This document shows, one piece after another, positions 1,635 to 34,716 of a stretch of DNA of 36,367 nt (its first letter is position 1; each line of letters begins with the position of its first letter). The stretch spans positions 1 to 36,367 of the forward strand of contig CAMDWA010000028.1 of assembly GCA_945877855.1 (NCBI GenBank), given 5' to 3'. The position numbers were made by a program, and so were the translations under genes. This stretch comes from Thermoflexus hugenholtzii JAD2 (GTDB taxonomy: Bacteria; Chloroflexota; Anaerolineae; J036; Brachytrichaceae). Under the pieces are notes generated by a model. That model was not told the DNA's origin. It saw only the letters and a program-made list of their open reading frames with translations, and ran no database searches.

Positions 1635-4478
1635 TTACCGCACCTCAATCACCCCCGCCCACCAACCTTGACCCCCCACCAACAAACGCTCGCCCGAATA
1701 AGGCAAATAGAAGCCGACACGCAACTGATACTGACCGAGCGGCACATTGTCCAAGCCAAGCATGCGCTCGTCACGCACCCATTCACCCGCCGCCCAGCGC
1801 GAGGTGGGATAAGCCCCATTGAGCGGCTGCCCATCGTTTTGCGCCACCAAGCGCCCCGTTTTGGGGTCGATGAGATGCACAAACACCACATAATCTTGCT
1901 CGATGGGCTGCAACGAGTGCCAATGGAGTGCAAGTTGCAGGTTGCAAGTTGTGGCTTTCATCTCACACGCTGTCATATCAAACCCCGCCAATTCGATCAC
2001 GCCGCCCATAACCGCACCCACCCGCACCTGCGGCGAGGCCACCGCAAAGTTGCGCGGCGGGGCATTCACCGTAATCGCGCCCAAGTCGGCCAACAGCTTG
2101 CCATCGGCCAACACCTGCAATTGATAATCGCCAGCAGCCAAATTGCGCGGTAAGCGTAATTGATAACGGTCGAGCAACGCCAAGTTGGGCGGCCATTCGG
2201 CAAAGGGCAAACGGGCGCGGGCGGGTGCGCCATCAAACAAAGTAACAAGGCTTGGCCCAAGCAACTGCACCTTGAATGTGGCATTTGGCATGGGTTGGGC
2301 TGCCCCTTGCCAACACAGGTCTAGATTCAGCAACGCCCCCGTGTTTAAAGTGCGCTCGCGCAATTGCCACGCGCTTAAGGTTGCACCATTGGGCAAATGG
2401 GTTTGGGTGCTGGTGTAGGGGGCAGCGCTGCAAATGGGCACGGCGGCTGTCACAGGGGGGCGGGGCAATGGGGCGCTCAGTTTGCCAAACGGCAACACCA
2501 GCTCTAGCCCAGCAAATTGCTCATTGGGGCCAACCCGCGGCGGCACATCTTTGGTGTTTGGGTTAAAAAAGCTGATGCCGATTTGATAATCGCCAACCGG
2601 TGGGGTTCCGGTCGGCGGCGGCAATTCGATCTGGTCAAACACAATCTCACCCACCGTCCAATCGGCGGTGGGGTAATGAAATGGGTTGGCACGCACCCAT
2701 TCGCCCGACTCGGCATGAAACAGCCGCGCTACCAACTGCAACGGCTGCCCAATCTGGGCCATCGGCTCCCAGATCACGGTTGCCACACACGGCCCTTGCA
2801 CATGACATTCGCCAAATTTTTGAGCATCGCGCACTTTGACGATGTGGGCAAAATCGGCGGCGGGCGCGGGCAATTGGGCGCGAATGGCCGCGATATCGGC
2901 CTCGCGTAGCCGCATCACACGGGCGGCAACTACGCCATCGGGCGCGGTCAAGAGCGTATCGGTTTGCCAACGGCTGGTGATGAGCGTTGAATAGGGGGCG
3001 GGCGGGTCAACGAAGGTGGGCAAATAATAGAGCGCGTCGCCCTTGGGCGGCAGCACCAGCGTCGCCCCGCCGGTCAGCCATTTCACCTGCCCAAAACGCT
3101 GGGTCAGCGCCGCCACGGTCGGCGATTGATAATGGATGGAGGCGACATACAGCGTGGTGTTTTGCACATCGGCAACACTGCGGCGCTGCAAATCTTGCCC
3201 AATCACAGTCATATTGCCATCGGTGGCAACGAATAAATCGGGCGAGTGATTCCAGCGTGAGTAGCGGTTCCATGCTAGCAAACCAAGCATCGCCGCTGCG
3301 CACATCAACCCAATTTGCAGCCAGCGCCGCGAAATAGTGTGGGGGGGTAACAAACTGTGCAACCCATTAAACAGCGTCACACCGCCATAACCAATCACCG
3401 GTGCGAGAAAGGTCCAAACACCGATCATGCGAATATTGCTAGGGATGATGTCTTTGACCGCCAAGGCGCTGGGCACAAGCATGATTACTAGCCCGGACAA
3501 CAATAACGCCCGCGTGGCATAAACCTCCGAGGTCTTAAAGACCTCGGAGGTTTTTTGTGGGATGAGTAGCGTGATTACCCCAATTAACCCAAACAATGAG
3601 AAAACTTCGCCACTCAGCGGCAGGCCCGGCAGGTTATAGCGCACATTAGGGTCGCCGAAGTTGGGCAAAAACAAGCCGAGCCAACATTGCCACCATGCCC
3701 ACGCCACCTCGCGCCAGCCCGCACTACCACTCACTTGGTCGAGCCGCGCCGAAAAAATATCGGGGTTTTGAATAAAAAACCAGCCCAATGGCGCAAACAC
3801 TATTGCCGCCACAAGCCCCATCAACCCCACCCGTGCCAAACGCTGACCACACCCACGCCGGGCAGACACAGCCAACCACACCAATAACGCCAAGGCGACC
3901 GGAATAGGAAACAAACGCGCCGCCAAATAAGTATAGGCGACCAAACCGAGAAAAACACCCGCCGCCGCAAACCAACGCCAGCGTCCCGTATTCATGCCGC
4001 GCCATAGCGCCATAAGCACCAACGCCTGCACCACCGGTTGTGAGCCAGCGCGATAGCCATAACGCGCAAAAATGAGCGGCGCAATGCTGACAGCCAGCCA
4101 AAACGCGGCGATCAGGGCGATGGCATTGCGCTGAGGGTGCGCGGCAAACAACGAGCGCGTCATTGAAAAAGTGGCGGCGATGCCGATGAGGCTGAGCATG
4201 GCCGAAGCAAGGCGCGTACCCCAAGTGGCGTTATCGGCCATCATCAACCAAGGCGCGGCCCAATATAAAAAGCCCACCTCACGCCCGACAAAGGCCCGCA
4301 CAAAAATAGGCCGGTCTCCGTTATAGGCAATATCGCGGATGTTTAACACGTAGGCGGCTTCGTCGTAATGCAGCCCATGGGCAAGGGTAGTGATATCGGT
4401 CAGGCGCAATAACGCCGCCACCAGTAAAATCAAGGTGGCAAGCCATAAGGTGGTGCGGGCATCAGGTCGGCGCAACAT
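1635..4478 (-). CDS. GT-C superfamily membrane glycosyltransferase (ArnT/PMT_2-like, GT39/GT83-like) with a large C-terminal extracytoplasmic domain
   Basis: 947 aa with about 12-13 predicted TM helices in the N-terminal 450 aa, an HYDEAAY (DE) motif in the first loop, and a long non-membrane C-terminal domain. Contains a 33-bp in-frame palindrome at 3521-3553. Confidence 0.6.
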   Translation of the reverse strand: MLRRPDARTTLWLATLILLVAALLRLTDITTLAHGLHYDEAAYVLNIRDIAYNGDRPIFVRAFVGREVGFLYWAAPWLMMADNATWGTRLASAMLSLIGIAATFSMTRSLFAAHPQRNAIALIAAFWLAVSIAPLIFARYGYRAGSQPVVQALVLMALWRGMNTGRWRWFAAAGVFLGLVAYTYLAARLFPIPVALALLVWLAVSARRGCGQRLARVGLMGLVAAIVFAPLGWFFIQNPDIFSARLDQVSGSAGWREVAWAWWQCWLGLFLPNFGDPNVRYNLPGLPLSGEVFSLFGLIGVITLLIPQKTSEVFKTSEVYATRALLLSGLVIMLVPSALAVKDIIPSNIRMIGVWTFLAPVIGYGGVTLFNGLHSLLPPHTISRRWLQIGLMCAAAMLGLLAWNRYSRWNHSPDLFVATDGNMTVIGQDLQRRSVADVQNTTLYVASIHYQSPTVAALTQRFGQVKWLTGGATLVLPPKGDALYYLPTFVDPPAPYSTLITSRWQTDTLLTAPDGVVAARVMRLREADIAAIRAQLPAPAADFAHIVKVRDAQKFGECHVQGPCVATVIWEPMAQIGQPLQLVARLFHAESGEWVRANPFHYPTADWTVGEIVFDQIELPPPTGTPPVGDYQIGISFFNPNTKDVPPRVGPNEQFAGLELVLPFGKLSAPLPRPPVTAAVPICSAAPYTSTQTHLPNGATLSAWQLRERTLNTGALLNLDLCWQGAAQPMPNATFKVQLLGPSLVTLFDGAPARARLPFAEWPPNLALLDRYQLRLPRNLAAGDYQLQVLADGKLLADLGAITVNAPPRNFAVASPQVRVGAVMGGVIELAGFDMTACEMKATTCNLQLALHWHSLQPIEQDYVVFVHLIDPKTGRLVAQNDGQPLNGAYPTSRWAAGEWVRDERMLGLDNVPLGQYQLRVGFYLPYSGERLLVGGQGWWAGVIEVR

Positions 4479-4502: not shown

Positions 4503-4625
4503 GGGAGCCGTGAGCCATGAGCTTTGAGCTTTGAGCCTTGAGCCTTGAGCTATGAGTCACAAGTCACGGCTCATGGCTCATGGCTCATAGCTCATGGCTC
4601 CAAAGCTCATGCCTCACGGCTCAAA
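4503..4625. repeat. Quasi-palindromic heptamer array (TGAGCNN x7, then its complement NNGCTCA x8) in the divergent promoter region
   Basis: Left arm tgagcca/tgagctt/tgagctt/tgagcct/tgagcct/tgagcta; the right arm is the complementary set cggctca/tggctca/tggctca/tagctca and so on. It sits between the GT gene start (4478, minus) and the CMD start (4642, plus). Confidence 0.75.
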
Positions 4626-5031: not shown

Positions 5032-6416
5032 TGATGACCAACTTGACCTTTACCCCCCTCAGCAAACTGCGCCGCATGTTACGAGATAAAAAAATCTCGT
5101 CGGTTGAGTTGACCCAGCATTTTTTAGACCGTTTGGCCCAACACGGCCCCAAATATAACGCGCTGGCCGAGCTGACACCCGATTTGGCATTGGCGCAAGC
5201 CAAACAGGCCGATCAATTGCTCAAAAAAGGCGAACACAACTCACCCTTGCTCGGCATTCCCTATGGGGCCAAAGATTTGCTGGCAACCAAAGGCATCCCC
5301 ACCCGTTGGGGATCACCCGCCCACCAAGACCAAGTGCCAGAGGTCGATGCCACAACGGTGCTGCGCCTGCGCGAGGCAGGTGCACCATTATTGGGCAAAT
5401 TGGCAATGGTCGAAATTGCGGGCGGCGGCGGGTATTCATTACCCAGCGCCTCGTTGCATGGGCCGGGGCTTAATCCTTGGAATGTTAATACGTGGTCAGG
5501 TGGCTCATCATCGGGGTCGGGCAGCGCGGTGGCGGCGGGGTTGGTGCCGTTTGCGCTTGGCTCTGAAACATGGGGCAGCATCGTCACACCGTCAACCTAT
5601 TGCGGCATTACTGGCTTGCGCCCAACCTATGGCTTGGTCAGCCGCTTTGGGGCAATGGAATTGGCGTGGACGATGGACAAAGTGGGGCCGATGGCGCACA
5701 GCGCCGAAGATTGTGGCCTCATTCTGCAAGCCATTGCTGGCCCTGATAGGCTCGACCTGACCGCAACCGGCAAATTTAAATTTCGCCCACGCAAAAAACA
5801 ACATCATAAGTTGCGGTTAGGCGTGTTGCCTGCCGATTTTAGTGGCGAGCCTGAGCTTGAGCAGGTTTTTCAGGCCGCGCTTGAGGTGTTGCATAAGGCC
5901 GGTATGAAGATCAAACCAGTGGAGTTGCCCAAGCACGACTATGCTGGCATCGCCAATACGCTGCTGTATGCCGAAATGGCGGGGGCGCATGAGGCGTTTA
6001 TCAAAAGCGACAAACTTGATTTGCTGGTGAATGGCCCGCAAAAAGAGGGCTTGCGCAACGCCTTAACCTACACTGCCGCCCAAACCATTCAAGCCCAACA
6101 ACAAAAATTACAGGCCACCCACGACCTGTTGCAGCTTTTTGACGAATTTGATGCGCTGGTGTCGCCGTCACTCATGATTGAGGCCCCATCGCTTGACACC
6201 GACTTGCGCACGGCGTTTAAACGGCGCGGGGGCTATAGCGTGTTGGGGGCCTTGTGTGGCGTGCCGGCCTTGGCTTTGCCGATGGGCTTTGGCAAATCGG
6301 GTTTGCCGCTTGGCCTTAATATTACCGGCAATTTGTTTGACGAAAACACCATTTTGCACATCGGCATGGTTTATCAGCGCGAAACCGATTGGCATGAACG
6401 GCGACCACCAATTTAA
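5031..6416 (+). CDS. Amidase-signature family amidase (GatA-like)
   Basis: Amidase signature GGSSSGSGSAVAAG...GSETWGSI with the catalytic Lys in YGAKDLL. 461 aa, translationally coupled to the upstream CMD gene. Confidence 0.8.
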   Translation: MMTNLTFTPLSKLRRMLRDKKISSVELTQHFLDRLAQHGPKYNALAELTPDLALAQAKQADQLLKKGEHNSPLLGIPYGAKDLLATKGIPTRWGSPAHQDQVPEVDATTVLRLREAGAPLLGKLAMVEIAGGGGYSLPSASLHGPGLNPWNVNTWSGGSSSGSGSAVAAGLVPFALGSETWGSIVTPSTYCGITGLRPTYGLVSRFGAMELAWTMDKVGPMAHSAEDCGLILQAIAGPDRLDLTATGKFKFRPRKKQHHKLRLGVLPADFSGEPELEQVFQAALEVLHKAGMKIKPVELPKHDYAGIANTLLYAEMAGAHEAFIKSDKLDLLVNGPQKEGLRNALTYTAAQTIQAQQQKLQATHDLLQLFDEFDALVSPSLMIEAPSLDTDLRTAFKRRGGYSVLGALCGVPALALPMGFGKSGLPLGLNITGNLFDENTILHIGMVYQRETDWHERRPPI

Positions 6417-9040: not shown

Positions 9041-10012
9041 ATGTCTAATGCAACCAACCTAACACTACGCGCCTATCGTGGTCTTGTCGATCATCCCGCG
9101 ATGATCTCACTTACGAATGCCTGCCACCAACACGAAGGGGTAGAAGAATTTGAAACGGCAGAAAGTCTGCAACATTTTTTACATTTTCCGCACAGCGATC
9201 CTGAGTATGACATCATTGTCGCCGAAAATGCTGAGGGGATCATCGGTTATGCCCATACCTTTTGGCGAAAAAATCGCGATAACAGTATCGTGCATTATGT
9301 TTTTGTCTTTGTCCATCCCGATCAACAACGCCAAGGCGTGGGCACAAGGTTATTCGCCCAACTCCAACACCGCATTGCGGCGCTGACACAACAAACCGAA
9401 CCCAACAGCCCCCATCTATTACTCACTTATGTGCAAGAAAAAGAAGCGGCAGCCCAAGCCTTTGTAAACAAACACGGTTTTGGCGTTGCACGCTATTTAT
9501 ATGAGATGGTATGCCCGCTTGAACATTTGCCAAATTGTGATGATTACCCATTACCTGCCCATATTGAATTGCGACCAGCCTTGCCAGCCCATGACCGCGC
9601 CATTTACAATGCCCGCCGCGAAGCCTTTCTCGATCATTGGGGGTCGGCGCTACCCAGCGAAGAAGAATTTCAGGCATGGATAAACGATGAACAGCGCGAC
9701 CCAAGTAGGTATGTGATTGCCTGGGCCAATGACCAAGTGGCGGGCATGGTGCTCAATGAAATTAACCACAGTGAAAATGAAGCCAGTGGGCGCAAACGCG
9801 GCTATACCGACCCAATTGCGGTGCGGCGGCCTTGGCGCAAACAAGGCTTGGCAACGGCCATGCTGGTGCGCAGTTTGCACCTATTGCGTCAACATGGCAT
9901 GAGTGAGGCTGCACTGAGCGTTGACACCGAAAACCCGAGTGGGGCATTACGAATTTATGAACGCTTGGGGTTTAAAGCGGTAAAAAAGATCGTCGCTTAT
10001 CAAAAACTGTAA
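9041..10012 (+). CDS. Tandem-GNAT N-acetyltransferase, MshD (mycothiol synthase)-like architecture
   Basis: Two GNAT acetyl-CoA binding cores: VFVHPDQQRQGVGTRLF and IAVRRPWRKQGLATAMLVRSL...RLGF. The track ORF (8948) extends upstream into the MITE, so the start was set at MSNATNL; the start is uncertain. Confidence 0.6.
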   Translation: MSNATNLTLRAYRGLVDHPAMISLTNACHQHEGVEEFETAESLQHFLHFPHSDPEYDIIVAENAEGIIGYAHTFWRKNRDNSIVHYVFVFVHPDQQRQGVGTRLFAQLQHRIAALTQQTEPNSPHLLLTYVQEKEAAAQAFVNKHGFGVARYLYEMVCPLEHLPNCDDYPLPAHIELRPALPAHDRAIYNARREAFLDHWGSALPSEEEFQAWINDEQRDPSRYVIAWANDQVAGMVLNEINHSENEASGRKRGYTDPIAVRRPWRKQGLATAMLVRSLHLLRQHGMSEAALSVDTENPSGALRIYERLGFKAVKKIVAYQKL

Positions 10013-11211: not shown

Positions 11212-12774
11212 TTACGCCGTCTTCAATATTTCATCAGCGGCTTTTACACCCGACAAATACGCCCCATGCACCGTGCCAAAATATTGGCGGCTAGCCGCCT
11301 CACCCGCAAAATACAGCACATCGTCTAGCGATTTTGCCAAATGGTCGCGCATTTCGGGAACCGCGCCAACTGGGTTAAATGAATAGGAGCCACCCGCAAA
11401 AGGGTCTGAACTCCAACGGGTAATTTGATAATCGATCGGGTCAGGGGTGTTGCGCCCGAAGATAGTGCGCAGGGTTTGCATGGCGCTGGCGACGATCTTC
11501 TCATCGCTCAAAGCCTCAATCGATTGCCCGATATTGGCGGCGTTAAACCCCAGCAAAATGGGCAAACCAGTCGGGCGGGCAAAACTCACCCACTCCACCC
11601 ATTCGCCAGCGTTGGGGGCCACATATTCCATCCAATCGTATTTGGCTTGCCAAAATACCTTGGGGAAGCGCAAATAGCACTTGTTCAACACGCCCATTTT
11701 TAGCGCCTCGATGGCCTTTTGTTTTTGGGCAGGCAAGGCGGGCTTAAACATCACGGCACTGCGTTTCAGCACCCCCAGCGGCAAAGTGACAAGCACCTTC
11801 TCGGCCACATAAGTCGCGCTGTCAGTCGTAACACTTACACGATCTTTTGCCGTTTTCCATTCAATCTGACGCACTGGGCTGTTGGTTTTAATATCAAGCC
11901 CTTGCGCCAAATACCCTGCAATAGCCCCATAACCAGCCAAAAAGAGCGCGTCATCGCCCTTAAACGCCGCATCATCGTCATACCAATGCGCCGACAATTC
12001 GCCAATGCTGCCAGCGTATTCTTGCTCAAACTTGCCATTGAGAATAAAACTAACCAGCTGCTGCTCTTCGAGTGACAGTTTGGCCCAATTGAGCGCTTTT
12101 TCGATGACGGTCTGAATCGACTGGTCGTCATCACGTTTTTGGGCCGCCTTCAGAGCTTGGGTAATGGCTTTATCTAGCCGTTCAATTTGCGCCTCTTGCG
12201 CATCGCTCAAAACTTGACCTTGTGACCCATACCCAATTGTGCTCTCATAATATGTGGTCGCCATTTTTGCACCCACCGTCTGAGCCAAGGTCATAATCGG
12301 GTTGCCATCCACTCCGTGAATCCACGACGCGCCCAAATCCATTGGCGCATCGGGCCACTTGTTGCTCGTCCACAACCGCCCGCCAATGCGATCACGTGCC
12401 TCTAACACCAGCGGCTTGATGCCACGCTGGGACAATCTTTGCGCAGCCGCCAACCCCGCCATGCCTGCACCAATAACAATGACGCGCTGAAAGGCAGCAG
12501 TGACAGCCTGAGCCACAACAATTGGCAAGCAAATTACAGCGGAAGTAGTTTTGTCGCGCTGAGAGTCGGCGGTAACAGCCTGAGCCGCAACCGCAGTCGG
12601 CACGGGGGGCAGTGTGGGATTAGATGGTGGCGACAAAGCAGGTGGTGGCACAGGTGTCGCGTTGACCGGGGCTGAGATATCAGCAGTAGGGGCATAGGAA
12701 GGTAAAGTGCTTGTGGAGGCGCTCAAACCTACCACTGTCGCCCCCAGCCATTGCAAAAAATGTCGTCTGTGCAT
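11212..12774 (-). CDS. Tat-exported flavin-containing amine oxidase (MAO/polyamine oxidase family)
   Basis: Twin-arginine motif RRHFLQW at the N-terminus, a Pro/Ala-rich linker, then the FAD-binding fold VIVIGAGMAGLAAA...LEARDRIGGR and the C-terminal amine-oxidase motif YFAGEAAS...GAYLSG. Confidence 0.75.
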   Translation of the reverse strand: MHRRHFLQWLGATVVGLSASTSTLPSYAPTADISAPVNATPVPPPALSPPSNPTLPPVPTAVAAQAVTADSQRDKTTSAVICLPIVVAQAVTAAFQRVIVIGAGMAGLAAAQRLSQRGIKPLVLEARDRIGGRLWTSNKWPDAPMDLGASWIHGVDGNPIMTLAQTVGAKMATTYYESTIGYGSQGQVLSDAQEAQIERLDKAITQALKAAQKRDDDQSIQTVIEKALNWAKLSLEEQQLVSFILNGKFEQEYAGSIGELSAHWYDDDAAFKGDDALFLAGYGAIAGYLAQGLDIKTNSPVRQIEWKTAKDRVSVTTDSATYVAEKVLVTLPLGVLKRSAVMFKPALPAQKQKAIEALKMGVLNKCYLRFPKVFWQAKYDWMEYVAPNAGEWVEWVSFARPTGLPILLGFNAANIGQSIEALSDEKIVASAMQTLRTIFGRNTPDPIDYQITRWSSDPFAGGSYSFNPVGAVPEMRDHLAKSLDDVLYFAGEAASRQYFGTVHGAYLSGVKAADEILKTA

Positions 12775-13784
12775 TCTAATCCAAACTCTAACGTCGAATG
12801 ACGATAAAGCTTGATTATATTCAGATCAAGTTGTAATAAGATTGTTGCCTCATTTTTACCTACATACTCTAACACCGACAGCACATAGCAAATGCTTTCA
12901 GGCCGTGCATTCTTCTTGTTGTTGTCCCGCACAACAATCCAAGGCCTAAACGAGGTATAGACCTTGCTAAACATCAATTCTTTACATTTGGTATACGAAT
13001 CCCAAAATGCTTGGCTTTTGGCATCCATTAGGCTAATTTTCCATTGTTTCAATGGGTTATCAGCCCGTGAATCAAAACGTCATTTTTGCTCCTCTTTCGA
13101 GATCAAAAACCAAAATTTGATCAGCGTGACACTGTCTTCATACAACCTATGCTTATATTCGGTCACTTGGCGAATAAATTGCTCATATTGTTCGGGTGCG
13201 CAAAAGCCATTGACCGACTCGACGACAGCGCGGTTATACCAACTGCGGTCAAAAAACACAATCTCACCGCAATTTGGCAATTGGCACGTGTAACGCTGAA
13301 AATACCATTGCCCCACTTCTTCTTCGGTCGGCTTGGGCCAAGCCACCACTCGCAAGGCACGCGGGTTCATATGCTCGGTAAAGCGGCGAATGGCCCCGCC
13401 CTTACCGGCGGCATCGCGGCCCTCGAACAAAATCGCCACACGCCGTTTTTTCTCTTGCACCCAGCGTTGCAGTTTCACCAATTCGATCTGTAGCTTTTGC
13501 AATTCGTTCTCATAATTGAGCAACTCGACAATTTTTTGCGGGTTAATCTCCTTCGACTGCAGCAAACTAAACAGATCACGCGGCGACTGCACGCTGATCA
13601 AATCTTTGTAGGTTAGAAATGGCGCATCGGGGTTACTGGGCGGCGTCATGGGCAAGGCTGGCGGCACTTTTGGGGGCAACTTGGCGGCTGCGGGTTTGGG
13701 CGCAGCTTTTTTGCGGCGCTTTGGCTTGTCGCTGTTCGGGTTGTTGTTTGGGTCGCTGGGGGATGGAAGTGAAGCTTGAGACAT
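12729..13784 (-). pseudogene. ppk2: Polyphosphate kinase 2 (PPK2) interrupted by a single in-frame TGA
   Basis: Upstream ORF (to 13080) has the PPK2 Walker A FEGRDAAGKGG and ...FWFLISKEEQK. A TGA at 13080-13082 is followed in the same frame by RFDSRADNPLKQWKISLMDAKSQAFWDSYTK...PWIVVRDNNKKNARPE, the conserved PPK2 C-terminus. Start taken at MSQASL (13784). The ORF is otherwise intact. Confidence 0.65.
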
Positions 13785-13869
13785 AAGAATGTGTGGGATA
13801 AAACAAAATAAAAACACCTCGTGCAAAAATCACACGCCGTAGACAGCATATTCTGCCCTTGTTCATCAC

Positions 13870-14840
13870 TCACCCCCCTGATGGGTAGCACGGCACTGGC
13901 TTGTTGGATAGTGCACAACAACCTCACAAGACCAGTCCGCGTTGACGCAAATGCAGCACTCACCCTGCTATCAATTGAGGCGGTGGGCGCGTTTGTCTGG
14001 CTTGCTTGCGCGGCTCGTGCGGGGGCAGATGCCCAGCAACTGACAGTTGCTGGGCATCTACTCACCCTTAATTGATGGCAAACGTAACACTCACCACGCC
14101 ATCAATTGAGGCAGTGATGGGGTTAGTCTGGCGTGCTTGCGCGGCTCATGCGGGTGCAGATGCACCGCACCTCGCAGGTGCGGCGCATCTACTCACCCCA
14201 CGTTGGTGGCAAATGCAACGCTCACCCCGCCCTCAATTGAGGCAGTGATGGGGTTAGTCTGGCTTGCTTGCGCGGCTCGTCCGGATGCAGATGCACCGCA
14301 CCTCGCAGGTGCGGCGCATCTACTCACCCTTAAATTGATGGCAATGCAACGCTTACCCCGCCCTCAATTGAGGCAGTGGGCGCGGTCATTTGGCTTGCTT
14401 GCGCGGCTCGTGCGGGGGCAGATGCCCAGCAACTGACAGTTGCTGGGCATCTACTCACCCTTAATTGATGGCAAACGTAACACTAACCCCGCCATCAATT
14501 GAGGCAGTGACGGGGTTAGTCTAGCTTGCTTGCGCGGCTCATGCGGGTGCAGATGCGCCGCACCTGCGAGGTGCGGCGCATCTACTCACCCTTAAATTGG
14601 TGGCAAATGTAACACTCACCCTGCCCTCAATTGAGGCGGTGACGGGGTTAGTCTGGCGTGCTTGCGCGGCTCGTGCAGGTGCAGATGCCCAGCAACTGGC
14701 AGTTGCTGGGCATCTACTCACCCTTAAATTGATGGCAAATGCAACGCTCACCCCACCCTCAATTAAGGCGGTGGGCGCGGTCGTTTGGCTGGCTTGCGCG
14801 GATCGTGCGGGTGCAGATGCGCCGCACCTGCGAAGGGCGA
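13870..14840. repeat. Tandem array of about 7.4 units of ~131 bp (130-133 bp), each with two conserved hairpins and two alternating variants
   Basis: Unit starts (motif caattgagg) at 13971, 14104, 14234, 14365, 14496, 14628 and 14760. Variant A hairpin is gatgcccagcaactg-aca-cagttgctgggcatc; variant B hairpin is gatgcgccgcacct-gcg-aggtgcggcgcatc. A second hairpin, aattgatggc...gcc(a/c)tcaatt, spans the unit junctions. Confidence 0.85.
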
Positions 14841-14888
14841 CGACGACATCTCTTTGCCAATATGACACCCCTGCCCCCCACGGCCGGG

Positions 14889-14925
14889 CCGCGCTCCGCG
14901 CGGGCAGAGGGGTGCTCCCCTCTGC
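14889..14925 (-). other. Two adjacent GC-rich hairpins 45-80 nt downstream of the NACHT-FGE gene stop (DGR-type post-VR hairpins)
   Basis: ccgcgc-tcc-gcgcgg (14889-14903) and gcagagggg-tgct-cccctctgc (14904-14925; 8-9 bp stem with a 4-nt loop). Confidence 0.5.
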
Positions 14926-14968
14926 ACTCCCCCTTGATACCAGATAACCCAGAGCACCAAAGACCCGA

Positions 14969-17839
14969 TTAACCGGAGGCCCGAGCGGAGAATCGGGGCG
15001 CACTACTCACCAAACGAAAACCGTCGTTGCTGTCACGGATGTCTACATGGGAGTCGTCACGGACCGCCGCCCGCGCATCCGTATCATAGTTATACCACGA
15101 CCCGCCGCGCACGACCCGCTTTTTTATATTTTCTATACTTGGGTCTTCACGTTCCAAATTCGCCTGATATGGATACGCTAAGTAAGCACTGCTCGTCCAT
15201 TCCCACACATTACCGCATAAATCGCTAATGCCTTCAGGCGTTTCGCCCTCGGCAAAGAGACCAATCGGGGTGGTGCGACGAATATGACGCTCGAACGTAT
15301 TGCATTGACTGGCTTCAAATTTTTCGCCATACGCATAGGCACGCGCCCGCCCGCGCCGGTCAGGTTGACCCCGCGCTGCGGCCTCCCACTGCGCTTCGCT
15401 CGGCAAAACATAGCGGCTGCCAATTTGGGCACTCAGCCACAAACCATAGGCCCGCGCCTCATGCCAACATACCCCCACCACCGGCTGGCTGGGCTGGTTA
15501 AAGGCGCTGTCTTCCCAAAACCGCGGCTGCAGCGGCACCTCACCCATCGGAAAGGTTTTAGCCAACCACGCTTCAAAGGCCTCATCACTCCAATTGCGAA
15601 GCGTATGCCAAGCTCGCGCTTGGGTTGAGGTGCAGCGTTGTTGCGCCAATAAATGGTCGATATAGTCCTCCTCCCAGCTTTTTATAGCTTGTCTGCTGCT
15701 TCGCCAGCCCTCGCGCTGGCCTGCCACCGCACCTTCGGGGGTGCGAAAATAGCTTGCGGCTGGCGTATCCCACCAACGGGCATCGCTATAACCACCCGCA
15801 CGCATAAAACAAGCAAATTCGGCATTGGTGACCGGAAACTTACCCATGCGAAATGCATCCAACTTGACGCGGTGCACATGCTTAGCATTATCATACGACT
15901 GGTCTTGGTCGCCCAGCACATAGTCACCGGCCTCAATGGCGATCATGGGCGGCAACAGATATTCATGCCCCAGCTTGCCCATGCGCCGCTCAAAACGCGG
16001 GTCGCCCAGCCCCCCCAACGCCTCACCGGCGGCAATCCGCGCCCGTAGGTCGGCGTTGCGGTCTTGGCTGCGGGCAATCAAGCCTTGCTGCAACTCGTGC
16101 AACAAGGTGGTCGCCAGCTTGGGCTTGACCTGCGCCGCCACCTCGGCCGCCAACGGCAAGTTGAGCGGCATCAGGCTGGCAATCAGCGCATTCGGCTGCT
16201 CACTCAGTTGGGCCGCCAATTTCAGCGTTTCGGCCCAGCCGCTGCGATCGAGCGGCGGCAATGGCTCATAATCTTGGGCGGTTGCCAGCCACTGCGCCAA
16301 ACTCGGCTGCACCGCCTCGGCCTGCCACGCAATCGCCGCCAGCGGCGCATCAAATTGGCGGGCCGCACGGCGGGCCGCAAAAAATTCTTGCAGCAATTGA
16401 TGATAAAACCAAAACTCCTCGCGTTGGCGATCTTCATCTAGCACCGTCAGGGCCACGCCTGCCGTCAGCACCTCGCGCGCCCGTGGGTGTTGCAACACGT
16501 CGCAGGCGCGGGCTTCGTCCAACGTCACCCGCCCACCCGCGCCAGCCAGCCCTTGGCATTGCATGGCATAGGCCAATTCGCTTAGCTTGGGCATGAGCAA
16601 CCCGCGTTCGGGCAAACGCAGGTTGGTTTGGGTATCAACACGGGTGACATCTTCACGGTCACGCAGGTCGAATAGCGCTTCGTCCAGCAGCAGTGCATTC
16701 TTGCCCTCCACCTCGCGGCGGGCGGCGCGCCGCACCAGCTCGGCAAATAACTCGGCGCGGCTAGCCGGAATTTGCCCGGCCCGCTCATTCACCAAATCGC
16801 ACAATATTTTGGCGAAATAAGGCGTGGCATATAACGCAAGTTGCTCAGGCTGGTCCTTGATCTTGCCCCATATCGCAGCGGCGTGTTTGGGCGTATGTTG
16901 CTGCAAAAACGCCTCAAGCTGAACCGCATTGAGCACCTTCAGCGTGATCTGGCGCACATCCACATCGTCTTTCACGCTTAGGGTTTGGCTATAGTCGAGG
17001 CTGCGGCAGGTAAACACGGCGCGATTGCCCGATGGCAGGTCATCGCGCAAAAAATCGCGCCAGCGTTCCACCTGTTTGCCATATACCGCCCCGTTTGGGT
17101 GTGGCATCTCGTTCAGTGCATCCAACAACAGCAACACACACCCTTGCGCCAAAAAATAATCGAGCGGCGGCAGGGTGACATGAAAGCGCTTCAGCGTTTG
17201 CTGCCATTGTTGCGCCAGCCACTCGGCTGGGTCGGGCGCGTCGGGCGTGTATTTGTTGAGTGTAACAAACAATGTCACACTCAGCTGGGGTTGGTCTGCC
17301 GCCAAATACTCGGTCGCGCTTTGCCATTGCAGGCGGCGCAGCAAGGTGGTTTTGCCGCCGCCCGGCACCCCCAGCAGCACCAGCGACGGGTCGGTGATTT
17401 CCGCATCCGCCAGAACCTCGCTCAGGTCTTGGTAATCGTGGTCGCGCTCGGCAAAGCTCAGGCTGGTGTCGGTTTTTTGGCGGTCGAGCAGCCGCATCCG
17501 CACAAAACGGGTGTCAATTTGGCGCTTTTGGGCCAAATCTTTCGCCACTGCGCGATGATATGCCGTCAATGCGGCTTGGGTGGCGGCGGGGTCGGGCGCG
17601 GGTTGGGCATCGGCAAAGCTGATATTCGGGCGGGCCTCACGCACGGCTTGCAGTAATTTGGCATAATCGCCACGCGATTCGCAATGCTTAATCAAGTTCA
17701 TGGCGAACTTGGGTTGGGTATTGCGCTCAAAATCCTCGTCTCCAATCCCCAACTCAAAACACAACAGTTCGAGTTCGTCTGTTTTGAAATGCGCCTTCAA
17801 TGCCGCATAAAGTTGTTGCTGGGTTGGGGTATGGGGCAT
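14969..17839 (-). CDS. STAND NTPase: N-terminal death-like/effector-associated helical domain, NACHT P-loop NTPase, HEAT-like repeats and a C-terminal FGE-sulfatase (SUMF1-like, C-type-lectin fold) domain
   Basis: Walker A LLGVPGGGKTTLL, a NACHT-type Walker B LLLLDALNEM, and a HEAT-like AAGEALGGLGDPR. FGE motifs: HRVKLDAFRMGKFPVTNAEF, GNVWEWTSS, RVVRGGSW...GFRLV. The N-terminus carries LxxALKAHFxxxELELLCFELGIGDEDF. Confidence 0.8.
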   Translation of the reverse strand: MPHTPTQQQLYAALKAHFKTDELELLCFELGIGDEDFERNTQPKFAMNLIKHCESRGDYAKLLQAVREARPNISFADAQPAPDPAATQAALTAYHRAVAKDLAQKRQIDTRFVRMRLLDRQKTDTSLSFAERDHDYQDLSEVLADAEITDPSLVLLGVPGGGKTTLLRRLQWQSATEYLAADQPQLSVTLFVTLNKYTPDAPDPAEWLAQQWQQTLKRFHVTLPPLDYFLAQGCVLLLLDALNEMPHPNGAVYGKQVERWRDFLRDDLPSGNRAVFTCRSLDYSQTLSVKDDVDVRQITLKVLNAVQLEAFLQQHTPKHAAAIWGKIKDQPEQLALYATPYFAKILCDLVNERAGQIPASRAELFAELVRRAARREVEGKNALLLDEALFDLRDREDVTRVDTQTNLRLPERGLLMPKLSELAYAMQCQGLAGAGGRVTLDEARACDVLQHPRAREVLTAGVALTVLDEDRQREEFWFYHQLLQEFFAARRAARQFDAPLAAIAWQAEAVQPSLAQWLATAQDYEPLPPLDRSGWAETLKLAAQLSEQPNALIASLMPLNLPLAAEVAAQVKPKLATTLLHELQQGLIARSQDRNADLRARIAAGEALGGLGDPRFERRMGKLGHEYLLPPMIAIEAGDYVLGDQDQSYDNAKHVHRVKLDAFRMGKFPVTNAEFACFMRAGGYSDARWWDTPAASYFRTPEGAVAGQREGWRSSRQAIKSWEEDYIDHLLAQQRCTSTQARAWHTLRNWSDEAFEAWLAKTFPMGEVPLQPRFWEDSAFNQPSQPVVGVCWHEARAYGLWLSAQIGSRYVLPSEAQWEAAARGQPDRRGRARAYAYGEKFEASQCNTFERHIRRTTPIGLFAEGETPEGISDLCGNVWEWTSSAYLAYPYQANLEREDPSIENIKKRVVRGGSWYNYDTDARAAVRDDSHVDIRDSNDGFRLVSSAPRFSARASG
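14995..15112 (-). other. Putative DGR variable region (VR) at the C-terminus of the FGE domain
   Basis: RGGSW-YNYDTDARAAVRDDSHVDIRDSNDGFRLV. The scaffold positions match the canonical FGE-type template pattern RGGSWNNN..AR.A.R......GFR, and the variable codons are mostly NNC/NNT (tat aac tat gat...gac tcc cat gta gac atc cgt gac agc aac gac), as expected for AAC/AAT-derived mutagenesis. Confidence 0.5.
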
Positions 17840-17882: not shown

Positions 17883-18272
17883 TTAAACGACTAAACGACC
17901 TTTTTGTCCATCAATAGTCAACACACGCTCTGCTATTAAATCCATACCTATCAACCCCTCCACACCTAAATTATCAGGCACAATATTTTGAGCAAGCACT
18001 GAAAATGAGGTTAGCACTAAACCCATTGTTTCAAAGCGTTGAATGGGTAATTCATAGGCTCTCAACCGCCCACCAATTCCAGACAATATCACAGTTCGTG
18101 TGCCCATTTGAGCACTGTAACCCAGCAAATCTAAAATTGCAACGTCTATGATTGATTGCGGCGAGCCAGTATCAAGAATACAGTCCAAGTAACGATCGCC
18201 ACGTGGGCCAAAAATATGGACCGTTACCCAAATAATGCCTTCAGTAAGATCGTAATCACAAGTCCACATCAT
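17883..18272 (-). CDS. Retropepsin-like (clan AA) aspartic protease
   Basis: 129 aa with the catalytic LDTGS motif and a downstream GMDLI flap-like motif, a size typical of a single-domain bacterial retropepsin. Lower local GC. Overlaps the upstream small ORF by 17 nt. Confidence 0.65.
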   Translation of the reverse strand: MMWTCDYDLTEGIIWVTVHIFGPRGDRYLDCILDTGSPQSIIDVAILDLLGYSAQMGTRTVILSGIGGRLRAYELPIQRFETMGLVLTSFSVLAQNIVPDNLGVEGLIGMDLIAERVLTIDGQKGRLVV

Positions 18273-18507
18273 TATTAATCGTCGTAAATAGGGACAATCC
18301 GTGCTTTTTACCCGTCCACAAAATCGCTGCTGACTTCAGGTCTCTTTGCTTCTCAAGAACCCGCGCATGATTTGTATCATGGGCAAAAACCACACCTCGA
18401 CTAATTTCGCCCATATTGGGCCATTCAACCTCGATCAACACCACCCACTGATTCGGGTATTGCTGTTTAATTTCGGGCCAAGTTAATAAATTTTGCTGTT
18501 TTTCCAT
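18256..18507 (-). CDS. Small hypothetical protein (83 aa) translationally coupled to the retropepsin gene
   Basis: Start set at MEKQQNLL (ATG 18507), preceded by a strong SD GGAGG 6 nt upstream. The longer track ORF (to 18567) would overlap the uvrB start. Function unknown. Confidence 0.5.
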
Positions 18508-18538
18508 CGCATCCTCCCCCTCTCCAAAGTATAATATC

Positions 18539-18552
18539 GAACATAAGTTCGA
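18539..18552. promoter_or_regulatory. LexA (SOS) box of the Cheo/Gram-positive type, CGAACATAAGTTCG
   Basis: Matches CGAAC-N4-GTTCG, and matches the B. subtilis consensus CGAACRNRYGTTCG at 13 of 14 positions. Overlaps a TATAAT at 18530-18535. Ends 2 nt before the uvrB ATG and lies 32 nt upstream of the divergent small-ORF start. Confidence 0.7.
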
Positions 18553-18553
18553 T

Positions 18554-20722
18554 ATGTCAGAGTTCAAAGTCCACTCCCCTTTTCAGCCAATGGGCGACCA
18601 ACCGACCGCCATCGACGATATGGTCAAAAGCCTGAATGCAGGCAATCGCTACACCACCTTGCTCGGTGCAACCGGCACTGGCAAGACGTTTTCGGTGGCA
18701 AAAGTGATCGAGCGGGTGCAACGCCCGGCGCTGATTATGGCGCACAACAAGACCTTGGCGGCCCAACTCTATGCCGAGTTCAAAGAATTTTTCCCCGACA
18801 ACGCGGTGGAGTATTTCGTCAGTTATTACGATTATTACCAACCCGAAGCCTATGTGCCGCGTCACGACCTGTATATCGAGAAAGAATCGACCATCAATGA
18901 CGAACTTGATCGGCTGCGGCTAGCCGCCACCAGTTCGTTACTCAGTCGGCGCGATGTCATCATCGTGGCCTCGGTGTCGTGTATTTACGGCATCGGCAAC
19001 CCCGAAGATTATGGGCGCTATGTGGTCAAGCTGCACAAAGGCGAGGTGCGCCGCCGCGATATCGTGCTGCGTATGCTCATCGCCATTCAGTATGAGCGCA
19101 ACGACATCGCTTTTGCCCGCGGCAAATTTCGCGTGCGGGGCGACACGCTCGACATTTACCCAGCCTATGCCGATACCGCCTATCGGGTCGAGTTTTTTGG
19201 CGACGAGGTCGAGCGCATCGCCGAGTTTCATCCGGTCACTGGCGAAATTATCGACGATGTCGAAGCGATCGAGATTTTTCCCGCCAAACACTTCATCACG
19301 CCCCAAGACAAACTAAAGAAGGCCATTACCGAAATCGAAGCCGAGCTTGAAGAACGGGTGGCGTGGTTTAAGTCCCACGACAAACTGTTGGAGGCCCAAC
19401 GCATCGAACAACGAGTGCGTTATGACGTGGCGATGTTGCGCGAGGTTGGGCACACCACTGGTATCGAAAATTATTCGCGCATCTTAGATGGTCGCCCGAC
19501 CGGCTTCCCGCCCTTCACCCTGCTCGATTATTTCCCCGACGATTTTGTACTGATTGTGGATGAAAGCCACAACAGCTTGCCACAAATTCGCGGCATGTAT
19601 GCCGGCGACCAAGCCCGCAAGGGCGTATTGGTCGATTATGGCTTTCGTTTGCCCAGCGCAATGGATAACCGCCCGCTTAAGTTTGATGAATTTGAAACCC
19701 GTTTTCGGCAAGCCATTTTTGTCAGCGCCACCCCCGGGCCATTTGAAAAAGAAAAAAGCCAATTGGTGGCCGAGCAAGTCATTCGCCCGACCGGCCTGAT
19801 CGACCCCGTGATCGAAGTAAAACCGGTCAAAGGGCAAGTCGATGATCTCATCGCCCAAATTCGCGCCACCGTTGCCAAAAAACAACGGGTGCTGGTGACC
19901 ACGCTCACCAAACGCATGGCCGAAGACCTGACCAATTATTTGCAAGAAATTAATATCAAGGTGCAATATTTGCACAGCGAGGTCGAGACGGTCGAGCGGG
20001 TCGAGATTTTGCGCGACTTGCGCTTGGGTGAATATGACGTGGTGGTCGGCATTAACCTGTTGCGCGAAGGCTTAGACCTGCCCGAAGTGTCGCTGGTGGC
20101 GATTTTGGATGCCGATAAAGAAGGCTTTTTGCGCAGCACCACCTCGCTCATTCAAACTGTGGGCCGCGCCGCACGGCATGTCGATGGACGGGCGATTATG
20201 TATGCCGACAAAATGACCGACTCGATGAAAAATGCCATCGACGAAACCAATCGGCGACGCATCAAACAGGTGGCTTACAACACGGCGCATGACATCCAGC
20301 CAGCTTCGATCAAAAAATCGGTACGCGACCTGACCGACCGGGTGCGGGCCGATGACGATGCCCAAGAAGCGCTACCCGAAGGCGAATATCGATCCCCCGG
20401 CGCTGAGTTTCGCCGCGCCGCCCAAGCCTTGCGTGAAACCGCTGGCAAACGGGTGTCTGATATGCCAAAAGAAGCCGCGCAACAACTGATGGCCGATTTA
20501 GAGGCGCAAATGAAGCAAGCCGCCAAAGACCTCGAATTTGAAAAGGCCGCTGCCCTGCGTGATCAAATCATGGAACTGCGCCAACGGGTGCTGGGTGTAG
20601 ACCCAAATGCCCCAGCTTGGGAGCAAGCCCGCAAAGGGATTGACGTAGAAGATAAATCGCCCGCCCAAAAGTCGAAGGGCGATGTGCAATATAAACCCAA
20701 ACGGGTGGGTCGAGGGCGTTAA
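18554..20722 (+). CDS. uvrB: Excinuclease ABC subunit B
   Basis: 722 aa; N-terminus [22 protein letters not shown] aligns with UvrB. Has Walker A GATGTGKT, helicase motifs, and a C-terminal UVR domain ([18 protein letters not shown]) followed by a basic tail. Confidence 0.95.
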
Positions 20723-24963: not shown

Positions 24964-24965
24964 GA

Positions 24966-25068
24966 GTGGCAGGAGGCAAGTGGCAGGTAGCAAGTGGCAA
25001 GTAAAAAGTATCTAACTACTTTGCACTTTGCACTTTGCACTTGCCACTTGCCACCTGCCACCTGCCCC
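24966..25068. repeat. Quasi-palindromic heptamer array (GTGGCAR x~7 / YTGCCAC x~7) followed by a T-tract; probable terminator or attenuator between the anti-sigma and ABC genes
   Basis: gtggcag gaggcaa gtggcag gtagcaa gtggcaa ... tttgcac x3 ttgccac x2 ctgccac ctgcccc, then tttttt and the ABC ATG at 25075. Confidence 0.75.
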
Positions 25069-25074: not shown

Positions 25075-25998
25075 ATGTTCGTTATCGAAACCCAACACCT
25101 GCAAAAACAATTTGGCAATAAGCTAGCCGTTGCCGATCTTACGCTCACGGTCAACTCAGGCGAGGTGTTTGGGTTTCTGGGGCCAAATGGGGCAGGTAAA
25201 AGCACCTCAATTAAAATGTTGTTGGGGTTAGTCAAACCCAGTGCGGGCAACTGTTGGGTATTGGGGTTGCCGCCCGGCAATGTGCAAGCTCGCCGCAAAA
25301 TTGGCTTTTTGCCCGAGCATTTTCGTTTTCACGATTGGCTGACCGGACGCGAGTTTCTGCATTTTCACGGGCGGTTATATGGCATGTCGGGCCAAGCACT
25401 CAAACAACGGATCGAGACATTGCTGGCGCGGGTCGCCTTGTTAGAAGCGGGCGACCGCAAATTGCAACAATATAGCAAAGGCATGTTGCAGCGCATCGGG
25501 TTGGCAATGGCCTTGCTCAATCACCCCCAAATTGTCTTTTTAGACGAGCCAACCTCAGGGCTTGACCCATTAGGCCGCCTGCTGGTGCGCGATATCATCA
25601 CGGAAATACGCAACGAAGGCACTACTGTCTTTCTAAATTCGCACTTGCTCAGCGAAATCGAAGTGACGTGTAACCGCGTGGTTTTTCTCAAGCGCGGCAA
25701 TGTGGTGCGCGAAATCAACTTAAAAGACAATGAAATTCATATCAACGAACTCGAACTAAAATTGGGGCCGGTCGATGACAGCATTTTGCAAGGGTTAGCC
25801 CAATTTGGCAGCAATGCCCATCGAGATGGCGACCTCATTCGCATGAATATTCAAGACGAAGCCAGCCTGCCACAACTGGCCCGTTGGCTGGTCGGCCAAG
25901 GTTGCGAAATTTATCGCCTCGCTGCCCATCACCCATCGCTTGAACAACTGTTTGTTGAAACCATGACCGAAGAAAATAAGTTAACCATTGATGGTTAA
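25075..25998 (+). CDS. ABC transporter ATP-binding protein (ABC-2 / exporter type)
   Basis: Walker A GPNGAGKST, signature YSKGMLQRIGLA, and Walker B IVFLDEPTSGLD. Confidence 0.85.
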   Translation: MFVIETQHLQKQFGNKLAVADLTLTVNSGEVFGFLGPNGAGKSTSIKMLLGLVKPSAGNCWVLGLPPGNVQARRKIGFLPEHFRFHDWLTGREFLHFHGRLYGMSGQALKQRIETLLARVALLEAGDRKLQQYSKGMLQRIGLAMALLNHPQIVFLDEPTSGLDPLGRLLVRDIITEIRNEGTTVFLNSHLLSEIEVTCNRVVFLKRGNVVREINLKDNEIHINELELKLGPVDDSILQGLAQFGSNAHRDGDLIRMNIQDEASLPQLARWLVGQGCEIYRLAAHHPSLEQLFVETMTEENKLTIDG

Positions 25999-34707: not shown

Positions 34708-34716
34708 TGAATTTAT

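Follow-up and report, generated by a model that had tools for sequence, protein, structure and literature searches.

Does the hairpin-bearing tandem array that separates a sensor gene from a PPK2 gene in Thermoflexus hugenholtzii JAD2 owe its compensated palindromes to selection on structure, or can replication account for them? The locus is part of a stretch of 36,367 nucleotides (contig CAMDWA010000028.1), hereafter called the window. A first-pass annotation of the letters alone had argued that structure, or a site for a dimeric protein, is being maintained there.

The array and its genomic setting

The array occupies positions 13942..14860 (no strand) and comprises seven units, u1 to u7, of 130, 131, 132, 130, 132, 132 and 132 bp, delineated by TRF, a repeat finder, alignments and covariance-model hits (103-160 bits for the array units). 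TRF reports a single array at 13947-14830 (period 131, 6.7 copies, 83% matches, score 1148), and the repeat finder seven head-to-tail copies spaced by 131/131/131/131/132/132. About seven copies of a ~131-bp unit had been proposed, and the unit starts given at the time represent the same period in another phase. A 29-nt conserved block, GCTTGCGCGGNTCNTNCNGNNGCAGATGC, occurs seven times in the window, every time within the array, where shuffles expect 0.00 copies. The most conserved non-palindromic linker block, GCTTGCGCGG...GCAGATGC (first copy at 14004..14032, no strand), is present once per unit, with starts at 14004, 14135, 14266, 14397, 14528, 14660 and 14792. The last unit, u7, is truncated, and the 3' arm of its hairpin is degenerate. 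A higher-order period of 393 bp (three units) runs through the array and explains why the variants described below appear to alternate.

As units of 130, 131 and 132 bp follow one another, no reading frame is kept through the array, in agreement with what the first-pass annotation had deduced, and codon periodicity is absent at its variable columns (16/16/10). No protein families were found for the translations of two array ORFs, one on the plus and one on the minus strand. In protein searches, the sole match of the plus-strand ORF is the orthologous locus of a close strain, L083, via a 145-aa ORF, P0001, that covers the last three units there, and the minus-strand ORF matches unrelated repetitive proteins only; the sensitivity of these searches was limited, as short ORFs called in the array itself went unreturned. 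The array has no Rfam match at the gathering threshold, the only passing match in the window being a tRNA outside the array, and at a permissive threshold it gives sub-threshold microRNA matches, as any hairpin would. No sigma-70-like promoter or intrinsic-terminator-like site is found within 13942-14860 on either strand. In folds of the whole array, most of the pairing joins palindromes that belong to different units, and such folds are uninformative; folds of single units show no consistent strand preference. A putative linker hairpin seen on the plus strand only (CTTGCGCG/CGTGCGGG) was dropped, as inspection by eye showed its pairing to be broken in u2, u3 and u5.

The array lies in a 1.1-kb spacer between two co-directional genes. 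Its edge is ~110-130 nt downstream, on the same strand, of the stop codon of a gene coding for an EAD7-NACHT-FGE (C-type-lectin fold) immune sensor (14969..17839, minus strand, Pfam assignment), which harbours a hypervariable 3'-terminal block at ~15021-15096. Downstream of the array is the PPK2 gene (12729..13784, minus strand), with an in-frame stop codon at 13080-13082 and no PADLOC match. Given that no intrinsic terminator is seen between the sensor gene and the array, the latter would probably be transcribed as the 3' UTR of the sensor gene. The interval between stop codon and array contains a hairpin, GCAGAGGGG-AGCA-CCCCTCTGC (14904..14925, minus strand), which is kept with minor changes in relatives both with and without the array and therefore does not belong to the repeat. 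A weak terminator-like hairpin followed by a T-run (13820..13851, minus strand), situated between array and PPK2 start, has poor fold support, and a similar version of this sequence is present in a relative, L087.

The neighbouring genes are housekeeping genes (UvrB, RlmN and hut genes), and the order sensor gene-PPK2 is preserved in L087; the idea that the locus is an acquired island is thus unsupported. No transposase gene, including one for a RAYT (the IS200/IS605-like Y1 transposase associated with REPs), was detected among the window ORFs scanned with Pfam, the window contains no cas domains, and no regulator or partner gene adjoins the array. Nor do the window ORFs contain an RT domain, and remnants of an RT or TR are not seen either. 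The array was also considered as a DGR template repeat, for which ~100 bp of homology to the variable region, with differences at adenines, would be expected beside an RT gene. This was rejected, the 3' end of the sensor gene having no similarity to the array or to the rest of the window, with no RT domain.

The palindromes and their compensated variants

Each unit contains one 33-nt near-perfect palindrome, HP1, with arms of 15-16 nt around a centre of 1-3 nt; with extension, its stem reaches ~21 bp. Listed on the minus strand, the variants follow the order A, B', B', A, B, A, B-truncated from u1 to u7. Variant A, gatgcccagcaactg-a-cagttgctgggcatc, has perfect 16-nt arms and a 1-nt centre in u1 (14027..14059) and recurs in u4 (14420..14452, by inverted-repeat detection) and u6 (14683..14715, with a central G replacing A). 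Variant B', in u2 (14158..14190) and u3 (14289..14321, by inverted-repeat detection), has the loop CGC and an A.C mismatch on the plus strand that corresponds to G.U on the minus strand. Variant B has the loop GCG, the inverse of the B' loop, and perfect arms in u5 (14551..14583); it also provides the 5' arm and loop of the terminal, degenerate HP1 of u7 (14815..14848), whose 3' arm gives way to AAGGGCGACGACGACATC, running into flank sequence shared with L087. The existence of two palindrome versions had been correctly recognised. The earlier variant A had two bases too many, and the order A, B, B, A, B followed by two hybrid units is replaced by the one above. The inner arms had been described as completely different, whereas A and B differ in 3 of 10 inner base pairs, every one of them altered on both sides.

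Across the units, HP1 is paired in 97.5% of cells, with three double-sided pair changes. In every intact unit the minus strand, which is the gene-sense strand, reads GA-GTAG-ATGC at the foot of HP1; in u1 the GTAG corresponds to plus-strand CTAC at 14058-14061. This tag is absent from terminal degenerate units. Intact units have 3-4 wobble sites in HP1. On the minus strand all of these are G.U, on the plus strand none, which hints at some RNA-level constraint that would not be expected from a model at the DNA level alone.

The other palindromic features are less well kept. A second long palindrome, HP2, centred on CTCAATTGAG, is 72% paired across units, and its arms show no covariation. The centre of this weak hairpin is the 12-bp palindrome CCTCAATTGAGG, perfect at 14231..14242 (no strand) and found once per unit, with starts at 13969, 14100, 14231, 14362, 14493, 14625 and 14757; three of the seven such CAATTG palindromes are perfect, and four have 1-2 mismatches. 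As for the stem aattgatggc/gccatcaatt, said to be conserved across unit junctions, it is near-perfect at two junctions only, the others having uncompensated mismatches.

From B' to B, one arm mismatch is corrected and the loop is inverted (CGC to GCG), and nothing else changes. Replication template switching combines arm correction and loop inversion in one event (PMC8794818, PMC8604942), and at the level of sequence the B'/B difference is the signature of one such switch. Similar changes are found at an unrelated palindrome of the window (32409-32500), which has the loop TTT here, the orthologous site in a sister strain, L097, having AAA and being otherwise identical; a paralogue of this palindrome at 34715 has compensated arm changes and a flipped loop. 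Since template switching yields the same change, compensation in HP1 does not need selection on structure or on a dimeric-protein site. The first-pass view on this point was therefore right in that HP1 pairing is kept, but the inference of selection is not required.

Strain variation and distribution

The array is confined to one narrow Anaerolineae lineage. The flanks of strain locus L083 are 97.8-98.2% identical to those described here, and it has five units versus seven in our window, both counts coming from short-read assemblies. Its unit v2 is 100% identical to u2, v3 is a u3/u5 hybrid, and the 'variable segment' of v4 and v5 is of a different type from that of their counterparts u6 and u7. 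These differences in unit number and composition between close strains look like the result of unequal crossover and patchy conversion. A relative with 93% sensor-protein identity has at least one unit. In L087, whose sensor protein is 86% identical and whose gene order is the same, the syntenic spacer has no array and contains a MITE-like insert instead. Homologous sensor genes at L088/L089, L099, L100 and L101 are followed by spacers of 67-196 nt, and no long-period repeats are found downstream of them. The absence of the array from the 86% relative and from these four sensor-gene contexts indicates that it is dispensable for the gene. Among relatives identified with UvrB, the closest species representatives are 74-76% identical and on short contigs that provide no usable synteny. 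Most other assemblies of this locus break within the array or at its edge, and the array was recovered independently in several assemblies or samples (ERZ27280291, GCA_947492325.1, ERZ27280234 and Logan runs).

Searches for further copies were negative. The pattern for the conserved linker-to-HP1 block had 0 matches in genome and metagenome contig collections, the variant-tolerant HP1 pattern 0 matches in viral and metagenome contig collections, and BLAST 0 matches against plasmids and phages. A unit HMM and a covariance model, the latter recommended in the first-pass annotation, identified no further unit copies over 0.5-1.5 Mb of sequence. Neither HP1 nor the unit is found outside the array in ~43 kb of contig (the 36-kb window plus 7 kb), or in other contigs of these samples. 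With no second copy found outside the locus, the repeat does not show, in the sequence searched, the dispersal that defines REPs and MITEs. Weak HP1-like 33-nt palindromes in L034 were rejected as a different family, with ~10/15 arm positions in common; they fall within ORFs for PMT_2 glycosyltransferases in a distant MAG. A dispersed MITE lacking conservation in relatives had been named as the outcome that would speak against a maintained structure. Part of this is observed, as the 86%-identity relative has no array in its syntenic spacer, but no dispersed single copies were found.

Nature of the array

We favour, with a probability of roughly 0.6, a lineage-specific non-coding minisatellite, in which a REP-type HP1 has multiplied in head-to-tail order along with ~98 bp of neighbouring DNA; the latter is in turn a degenerate palindrome with CAATTG at its middle. 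As such, the array looks like a REP/MITE-like palindromic minisatellite, a further case of a known kind. It had not been recognised as any named repeat family, but GTAG-tagged REPs fit. The latter form sub-families whose complementary stem residues differ, contain G.T pairs, have loops of 2-3 nt and stems of 6-13 bp, and are reiterated in tandem together with flanking DNA (PMC3733652). HP1 resembles them as a near-perfect stem-loop with a very short loop (1-3 nt), with GTAG at one foot, although a 4-mer could be there by coincidence, and with A/B sub-types that differ by three complementary stem changes and also include G.T pairs. The location of the array between co-directional genes and its tandem arrangement with flanking DNA are further similarities. 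Differences from REPs are the longer stem (15-16 bp versus 6-13 bp) and the strictly head-to-tail organisation with a long, 131-bp period, head-to-tail REP dimers being reported as missing or under-represented in the majority of genomes, though tandem clusters exist. The high copy number and extragenic dispersal of REPs and BIMEs were not observed in the sequence searched; in Thermomicrobium roseum, another member of Chloroflexi, GTAG-23 REPs form large blocks at few loci and are an accepted exception to dispersal (PMC3733652). The array is unlike MITEs, which have terminal inverted repeats matching an IS element, in that it shows no target-site duplication and its two ends lie in different unit phases, and no single copies were found in the sequence searched. 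It does behave as a minisatellite or VNTR, with a head-to-tail non-coding unit within the usual range of 10-150 bp present seven times here and five times in L083 according to short-read assemblies.

Other known systems resemble the array in part. Mycobacterial MIRUs, of which there are ~40 loci per genome, often carry small ORFs that overlap neighbouring genes. Like the array, they and other VNTRs are intergenic head-to-tail repeats (tens to ~100+ bp) between co-directional genes, with strain-variable copy number, but MIRUs are not built around long perfect palindromes. Regular spacing and partly palindromic repeats are reminiscent of CRISPR; however, the entire 131 bp is repeated in contiguous, full-length homologous units, with no unique spacers and no cas domains, and the unit is far longer, so that the earlier verdict of 'not CRISPR-like' is upheld. 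A closer parallel is Thiohalocapsa PB-PSB1, in which MITE-like hairpin tandem arrays are found at DGR loci (PMC10907252). They adjoin DGR-diversified STAND/C-type-lectin targets and are polymorphic between co-occurring strains; those repeats correspond to the terminal inverted repeats of IS elements found at other places in that genome and take the place of DGR parts (PMC10907252), whereas here no remnant of an RT or TR can be seen.

We infer that the array has grown and shrunk by unequal recombination or slippage, and that arm complementarity would be kept mainly by template switching within the hairpin during replication. By copying one arm onto the other and flipping the loop, such switches would generate 'compensatory' variants without selection. 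Located between tandem genes, the E. coli REP/BIME cluster REP325 has a dual role, as stabiliser and as attenuator (bioRxiv 10.64898/2026.03.23.713779). By analogy, it is tempting to speculate that the ~14 strong hairpins of the array might block 3' exonucleases, thereby stabilising the transcript through its 3' UTR, and might attenuate read-through into PPK2. Such effects would be by-products rather than a dedicated function.

Selection might nevertheless have shaped the array as a cis-acting RNA element, with the minus-strand hairpins serving as a stabiliser or attenuator in the 3' UTR of the sensor mRNA. The near-complete pairing of HP1 with its three double-sided changes, the restriction of wobble pairs of intact units to the gene-sense strand, the slightly better folding of the minus strand in four of five units, the lack of a terminator after the sensor gene and the REP325 precedent are all consistent with this proposal. 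We nevertheless deem it unlikely: neither the 86% relative nor four further contexts of homologous sensor genes have the array, pairing is poor in HP2 and in the junction stem, which show no covariation, the 1-nt centre of variant A is untypical of RNA hairpins, the G.U bias amounts to 3-4 events (p about 0.06-0.12), folding does not consistently favour one strand when nine units are considered, and template switching explains the compensation. Still less probable is a DNA-level array, in which AGATGC...GCATCT and/or CCTCAATTGAGG would be bound by a regulator acting as a dimer, by a nucleoid protein, or by gyrase or IHF as in BIMEs, or would form a cruciform or fork barrier that affects the DGR target next to it. 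Perfect palindromes with 1-3-nt centres, outer half-sites and a 12-bp CAATTG palindrome conserved at a fixed 131-bp spacing, and folding without clear strand preference would suit such a role, and DGR targets are reported to rely on a hairpin or cruciform located downstream (PMC3240598). However, a dimer binding the duplex would not need self-complementary inner arms, the adjacent genes include no regulator or partner, of the seven CAATTG palindromes only three are perfect, and relatives that lack the array keep both the target gene and the post-stop hairpin.

It could also be imagined that the hairpin block was co-opted as a cis element of the hypermutating sensor gene, with its variants selected on the gene-sense strand. 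Cruciform or fork-stalling palindromes 3' of the DGR variable region would then raise retrohoming efficiency, or else an RNA hairpin array would tune the sensor transcript. There are only two hints in this direction, the position by the hypervariable region and the minus-strand-only G.U pairs, and the absence of the array from relatives with the same target gene makes co-option quite improbable. Tandem structured units upstream of a gene, with a weak terminator-like site before PPK2, are reminiscent of independent small-RNA genes of the NsiR1 type or of a repeat RNA that undergoes processing, for instance a ToxI-like type III antitoxin. The ToxI repeat unit is ~36 nt long, versus 131 nt here. 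Furthermore, the array has no promoter or terminator in each unit as NsiR1-type genes do, no Rfam match, no toxin partner (the downstream gene is a PPK2 gene with an in-frame stop, not an endoribonuclease) and no conservation in relatives, and the poorly folding terminator-like site occurs also in L087, which has no array; we give this interpretation very little credence. Equally hard to credit is a decayed protein-coding repeat of 44-aa units or an assembly artefact. One open frame per strand exists within each unit, 132-nt units stay in frame, P0001 spans 145 aa over the last three L083 units, and contigs often break at the locus. However, there is no third-position bias, protein homologues were not found, the palindromes dictate the sequence, and the same array is present in independent assemblies and samples.

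The minisatellite that we favour offers a worked example, from one locus in two strains, of how perfect hairpins, 'compensatory' variants and flipped loops can arise through template switching. It cautions that covariation inside repeat arrays is not proof of a functional RNA or protein site. The array would gain in importance if it had an effect on the sensor gene or on DGR homing, but present evidence gives no such indication. In practice, the array can be used as a strain marker (VNTR), and metagenome assemblies of this lineage repeatedly break there. Finally, reports of REP-like elements in Chloroflexota are few, and the array extends them with a case from Anaerolineae; it likewise joins the published case of hairpin arrays next to DGR-diversified STAND sensors.

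Extent and coding potential of the array

Judged from its sequence, the array between the EAD7-NACHT-FGE sensor gene and PPK2 appears to be a strain-variable, non-coding palindromic minisatellite organised around a REP-like stem-loop. The first-pass annotation had described a tandem array with a period of about 131 bp at 13870-14840; this array is real, and both its position and its period had been given correctly. Tandem Repeats Finder detected a single long-period tandem repeat in the window, at 13947-14830 (period 131, 6.7 copies, 83% matches, score 1148), and gap-free repeat finding gave seven copies at 131-132 bp spacing. A 29-nt degenerate pattern for the best-conserved block had one match in each unit and none in the rest of the window (shuffle expectation 0.00); other unit motifs likewise occur once per unit and are confined to the array within the window. 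The units start at 13942 (u1, 130 nt), 14072 (u2, 131 nt), 14203 (u3, 132 nt), 14335 (u4, 130 nt), 14465 (u5, 132 nt), 14597 (u6, 132 nt) and 14729 (u7, 132 nt, ending at 14860). The window also harbours short tandem heptanucleotide repeats at 1384-1426, 4505-4623, 24965-25061 and 25987-26079 (CCACACC, GAGCCTT/TCATGGC, ACTTTGC, ATTAATG x13).

One frame per strand is open within every unit. The 132-nt units stay in frame, but those of 130 and 131 nt interrupt it, so that no reading frame is kept along the array, as had been proposed. Changes in the variable columns do not follow a codon periodicity (16/16/10), and no protein families were found for the translations of two array ORFs, one per strand. 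As for an RNA gene, Rfam yielded no array match at the gathering threshold, only sub-threshold matches to microRNA models, which are attracted by any hairpin. No promoter-like or terminator-like sites were found inside the array on either strand, and individual units give good folds on either strand, neither being consistently preferred.

Hairpin variants and their origin

Each unit contains HP1, a 33-nt palindrome of the form AGATGC-N21-GCATCT. Variant A (u1, u4, u6) has perfect 16-nt arms and a single central base, and variant B (u5) perfect 15-nt arms and the loop GCG; variant B' (u2, u3) has the arms of B with one A.C mismatch, and the loop CGC. In u7, the 5' arm and loop are B-type, and the degenerate 3' arm continues into flank sequence. 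The resulting order, A, B', B', A, B, A, reflects a three-unit higher-order repeat of 393 bp. The inner arms of the two HP1 versions, previously described as completely different, actually differ between A and B at three inner base pairs, each altered on both sides; across 12 distinct units, taken from three strains, 97.5% of the inner helix is paired. A second, longer palindrome, HP2, lies around CTCAATTGAG; it is perfect in u5 only and 72% paired overall, and its 5'-arm 'variable segment' exists in three types without covariation with the 3' arm. The second stem reported to bridge unit junctions is near-perfect at two of them, and only at those two.

The HP1 versions had been taken to mean that a structure, or a site for a dimeric protein, is being maintained. 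However, B' and B differ by two linked changes, the correction of a mismatched arm base and the replacement of the loop by its reverse complement, and both would arise in one step if one arm and the loop were re-synthesised on the other arm as template. Such template switching homogenises the arms of inverted repeats, inverts spacers and yields multi-base 'compensatory' changes (PMC8794818; PMC8604942). It appears to be visible elsewhere in the genome, at a dispersed 92-bp palindromic element with 35-nt arms, of which 36 kb contain three intergenic copies (26982-27073 on the minus strand, 32409-32500 and 34715-34805). Comparison of two copies shows arm changes that are compensated and a loop that is flipped, and the copy at 32409 has the loop TTT in the window and AAA at the orthologous site of the sister strain L097, all else being identical. 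Because template switching gives compensated changes, HP1 covariation is weak evidence for selection on structure. One observation is not predicted by a purely DNA-level model: the wobble-compatible non-Watson-Crick sites of HP1 in intact units invariably read as G.U on the minus (gene-sense) strand, although with three to four such sites this is only suggestive.

Weaker or partial matches to the 92-bp element occur in L088 and L089, which carry homologous sensor genes. In L034, a distant Anaerolineales MAG, perfect 33-nt palindromes with flipped loops, AGGTGCCTGGCACTT-NNN-AAGTGCCAGGCACCT, lie within paralogous PMT_2 glycosyltransferase ORFs (9118-9150, 12532-12564, 14217-14249, 14700-14732, 15450-15482 and 15956-15988). 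This MAG also has a second palindrome, starting with GTAG (GTAGTAACGACTT/AAGTCGTTACTAC).

Distribution among strains and relatives

When the genome, metagenome and viral collections were scanned directly at the DNA level, the array patterns had no match, and BLAST searches of plasmids and phages with the array gave none. The same locus in a close strain (L083; flanks 97.8-98.2% identical to the window) was recovered by a protein-database search with a spurious array ORF, and further loci through homologues of the sensor protein. L083 has five units (v1-v5) against seven in the window; assemblies systematically break at the array, and copy numbers from short-read assemblies therefore need long-read confirmation. 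Compared unit by unit, v2 has the same sequence as u2 and v3 is a hybrid of u3 and u5, the outcome expected if an unequal crossover had removed two units; v4 and v5 correspond to u6 and u7 apart from the variable segment of HP2, which is swapped for another type. Recombination and template switching would maintain and diversify the array. Independent short-read assemblies of the lineage (L002, L084-L086, L091-L094) end at or inside it.

In a lineage at 93% sensor-protein identity, contigs end inside the first unit. At 86% identity (L087), gene order, the hairpin following the sensor-gene stop and the region preceding PPK2 are kept, and the 131-bp unit is absent from the syntenic spacer, which holds unrelated sequence with a MITE-like element. 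This element, of about 270 bp at about 3470-3760, occupies the array position and has 30-nt inverted ends (TGATAGGGGGTGCGTTCGTCATTTGGGGCAA / TTGCCCCAAATGACGAACGCACCTCATGATA), plus small hairpins. The spacer between the sensor gene and PPK2 seems prone to collect repeat insertions. Downstream of the homologous sensor genes in L088/L089, L099, L100 and L101, spacers are 67-196 nt and contain no long-period repeats. Comparison of L083, L087 and these other contexts argues that the array is young, confined to one narrow lineage and variable within it, and no companion of the sensor gene family.

Genomic setting and likeness to known repeats

Array and sensor gene (14969-17839, minus) share a strand, the array starting about 110-130 nt downstream of the gene, and PPK2 (12729-13784, minus) follows about 160 nt further on. 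An in-frame stop codon at 13080-13082 splits PPK2 at …SKEEQK*RFDSR…; it is a real nonsense mutation or recoding site and no sequencing error, since L083 and other assemblies have the same two-ORF split. The idea of an acquired island finds no support: outside this locus the window is ordinary chromosomal DNA, with genes for RlmN, an amidase, UvrB, ABC transporters, an ECF sigma factor and histidine utilisation. UvrB assigns the organism to Chloroflexota, class Anaerolineae, with the nearest species representatives only 74-76% identical. Directly upstream of the sensor gene, at 17883-18272 and 18256-18567 (minus), are a retropepsin-like aspartyl protease and an 83/103-aa ORF, which match subunits B and A of the PADLOC candidate defence system PDC-M08.

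The final 75 nt or so of the FGE/C-type-lectin domain, at the 3' end of the sensor gene (about 15021-15096, minus), show hypervariability among close strains: the window, a relative's contig (L084) and L087 differ there at many positions between invariant flanks, L083 also having been compared. This is the pattern expected of a DGR variable region. Neither template repeat nor reverse transcriptase was found in the window or the next 7 kb, and a DGR cassette must therefore act from elsewhere. Around the sensor-gene stop codon, 16 nt (GATTAACCGGAGGCCC, plus strand) are missing from L083 (about 6196-6215, against about 14950-14985 in the window), which should alter the C-terminal tail or stop position. 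A hairpin at 14904-14925, GCAGAGGGG-AGCA-CCCCTCTGC, with a 9-bp GC-rich stem and 4-nt loop, lies 45 nt past the stop codon, and L083, L084 and L087 retain it with slight differences; it may serve as the DGR target hairpin or form a structure at the 3' end of a transcript.

On the minus strand, GTAG precedes every intact HP1, overlapping the stem foot. GTAG-tagged REPs, which occur in Chloroflexi, have very short loops, sub-families with alternative complementary stem residues and frequent G.T pairing, and form clusters in which units plus flanking DNA are reiterated in tandem (Di Nocera et al., PMC3733652). The array is purely head-to-tail, its stem is longer than usual for REPs, and neither a dispersed copy nor a RAYT gene turned up in the sequence scanned. 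Strain-variable, hairpin-forming MITE-like arrays are known at DGR loci beside STAND/C-type-lectin targets (PMC10907252), and REP325 of Escherichia coli is a REP cluster located between two tandem genes, where it makes the upstream mRNA more stable and reduces read-through (bioRxiv 10.64898/2026.03.23.713779). By analogy, we file the array with REP clusters and MITE-like arrays, like which it would work, strict REP membership being unproven. It is very improbable that the array acts in cis on DGR homing or on regulation of the sensor gene. The array is probably transcribed as the 3' UTR of the sensor gene, where it would be a passive hairpin barrier.
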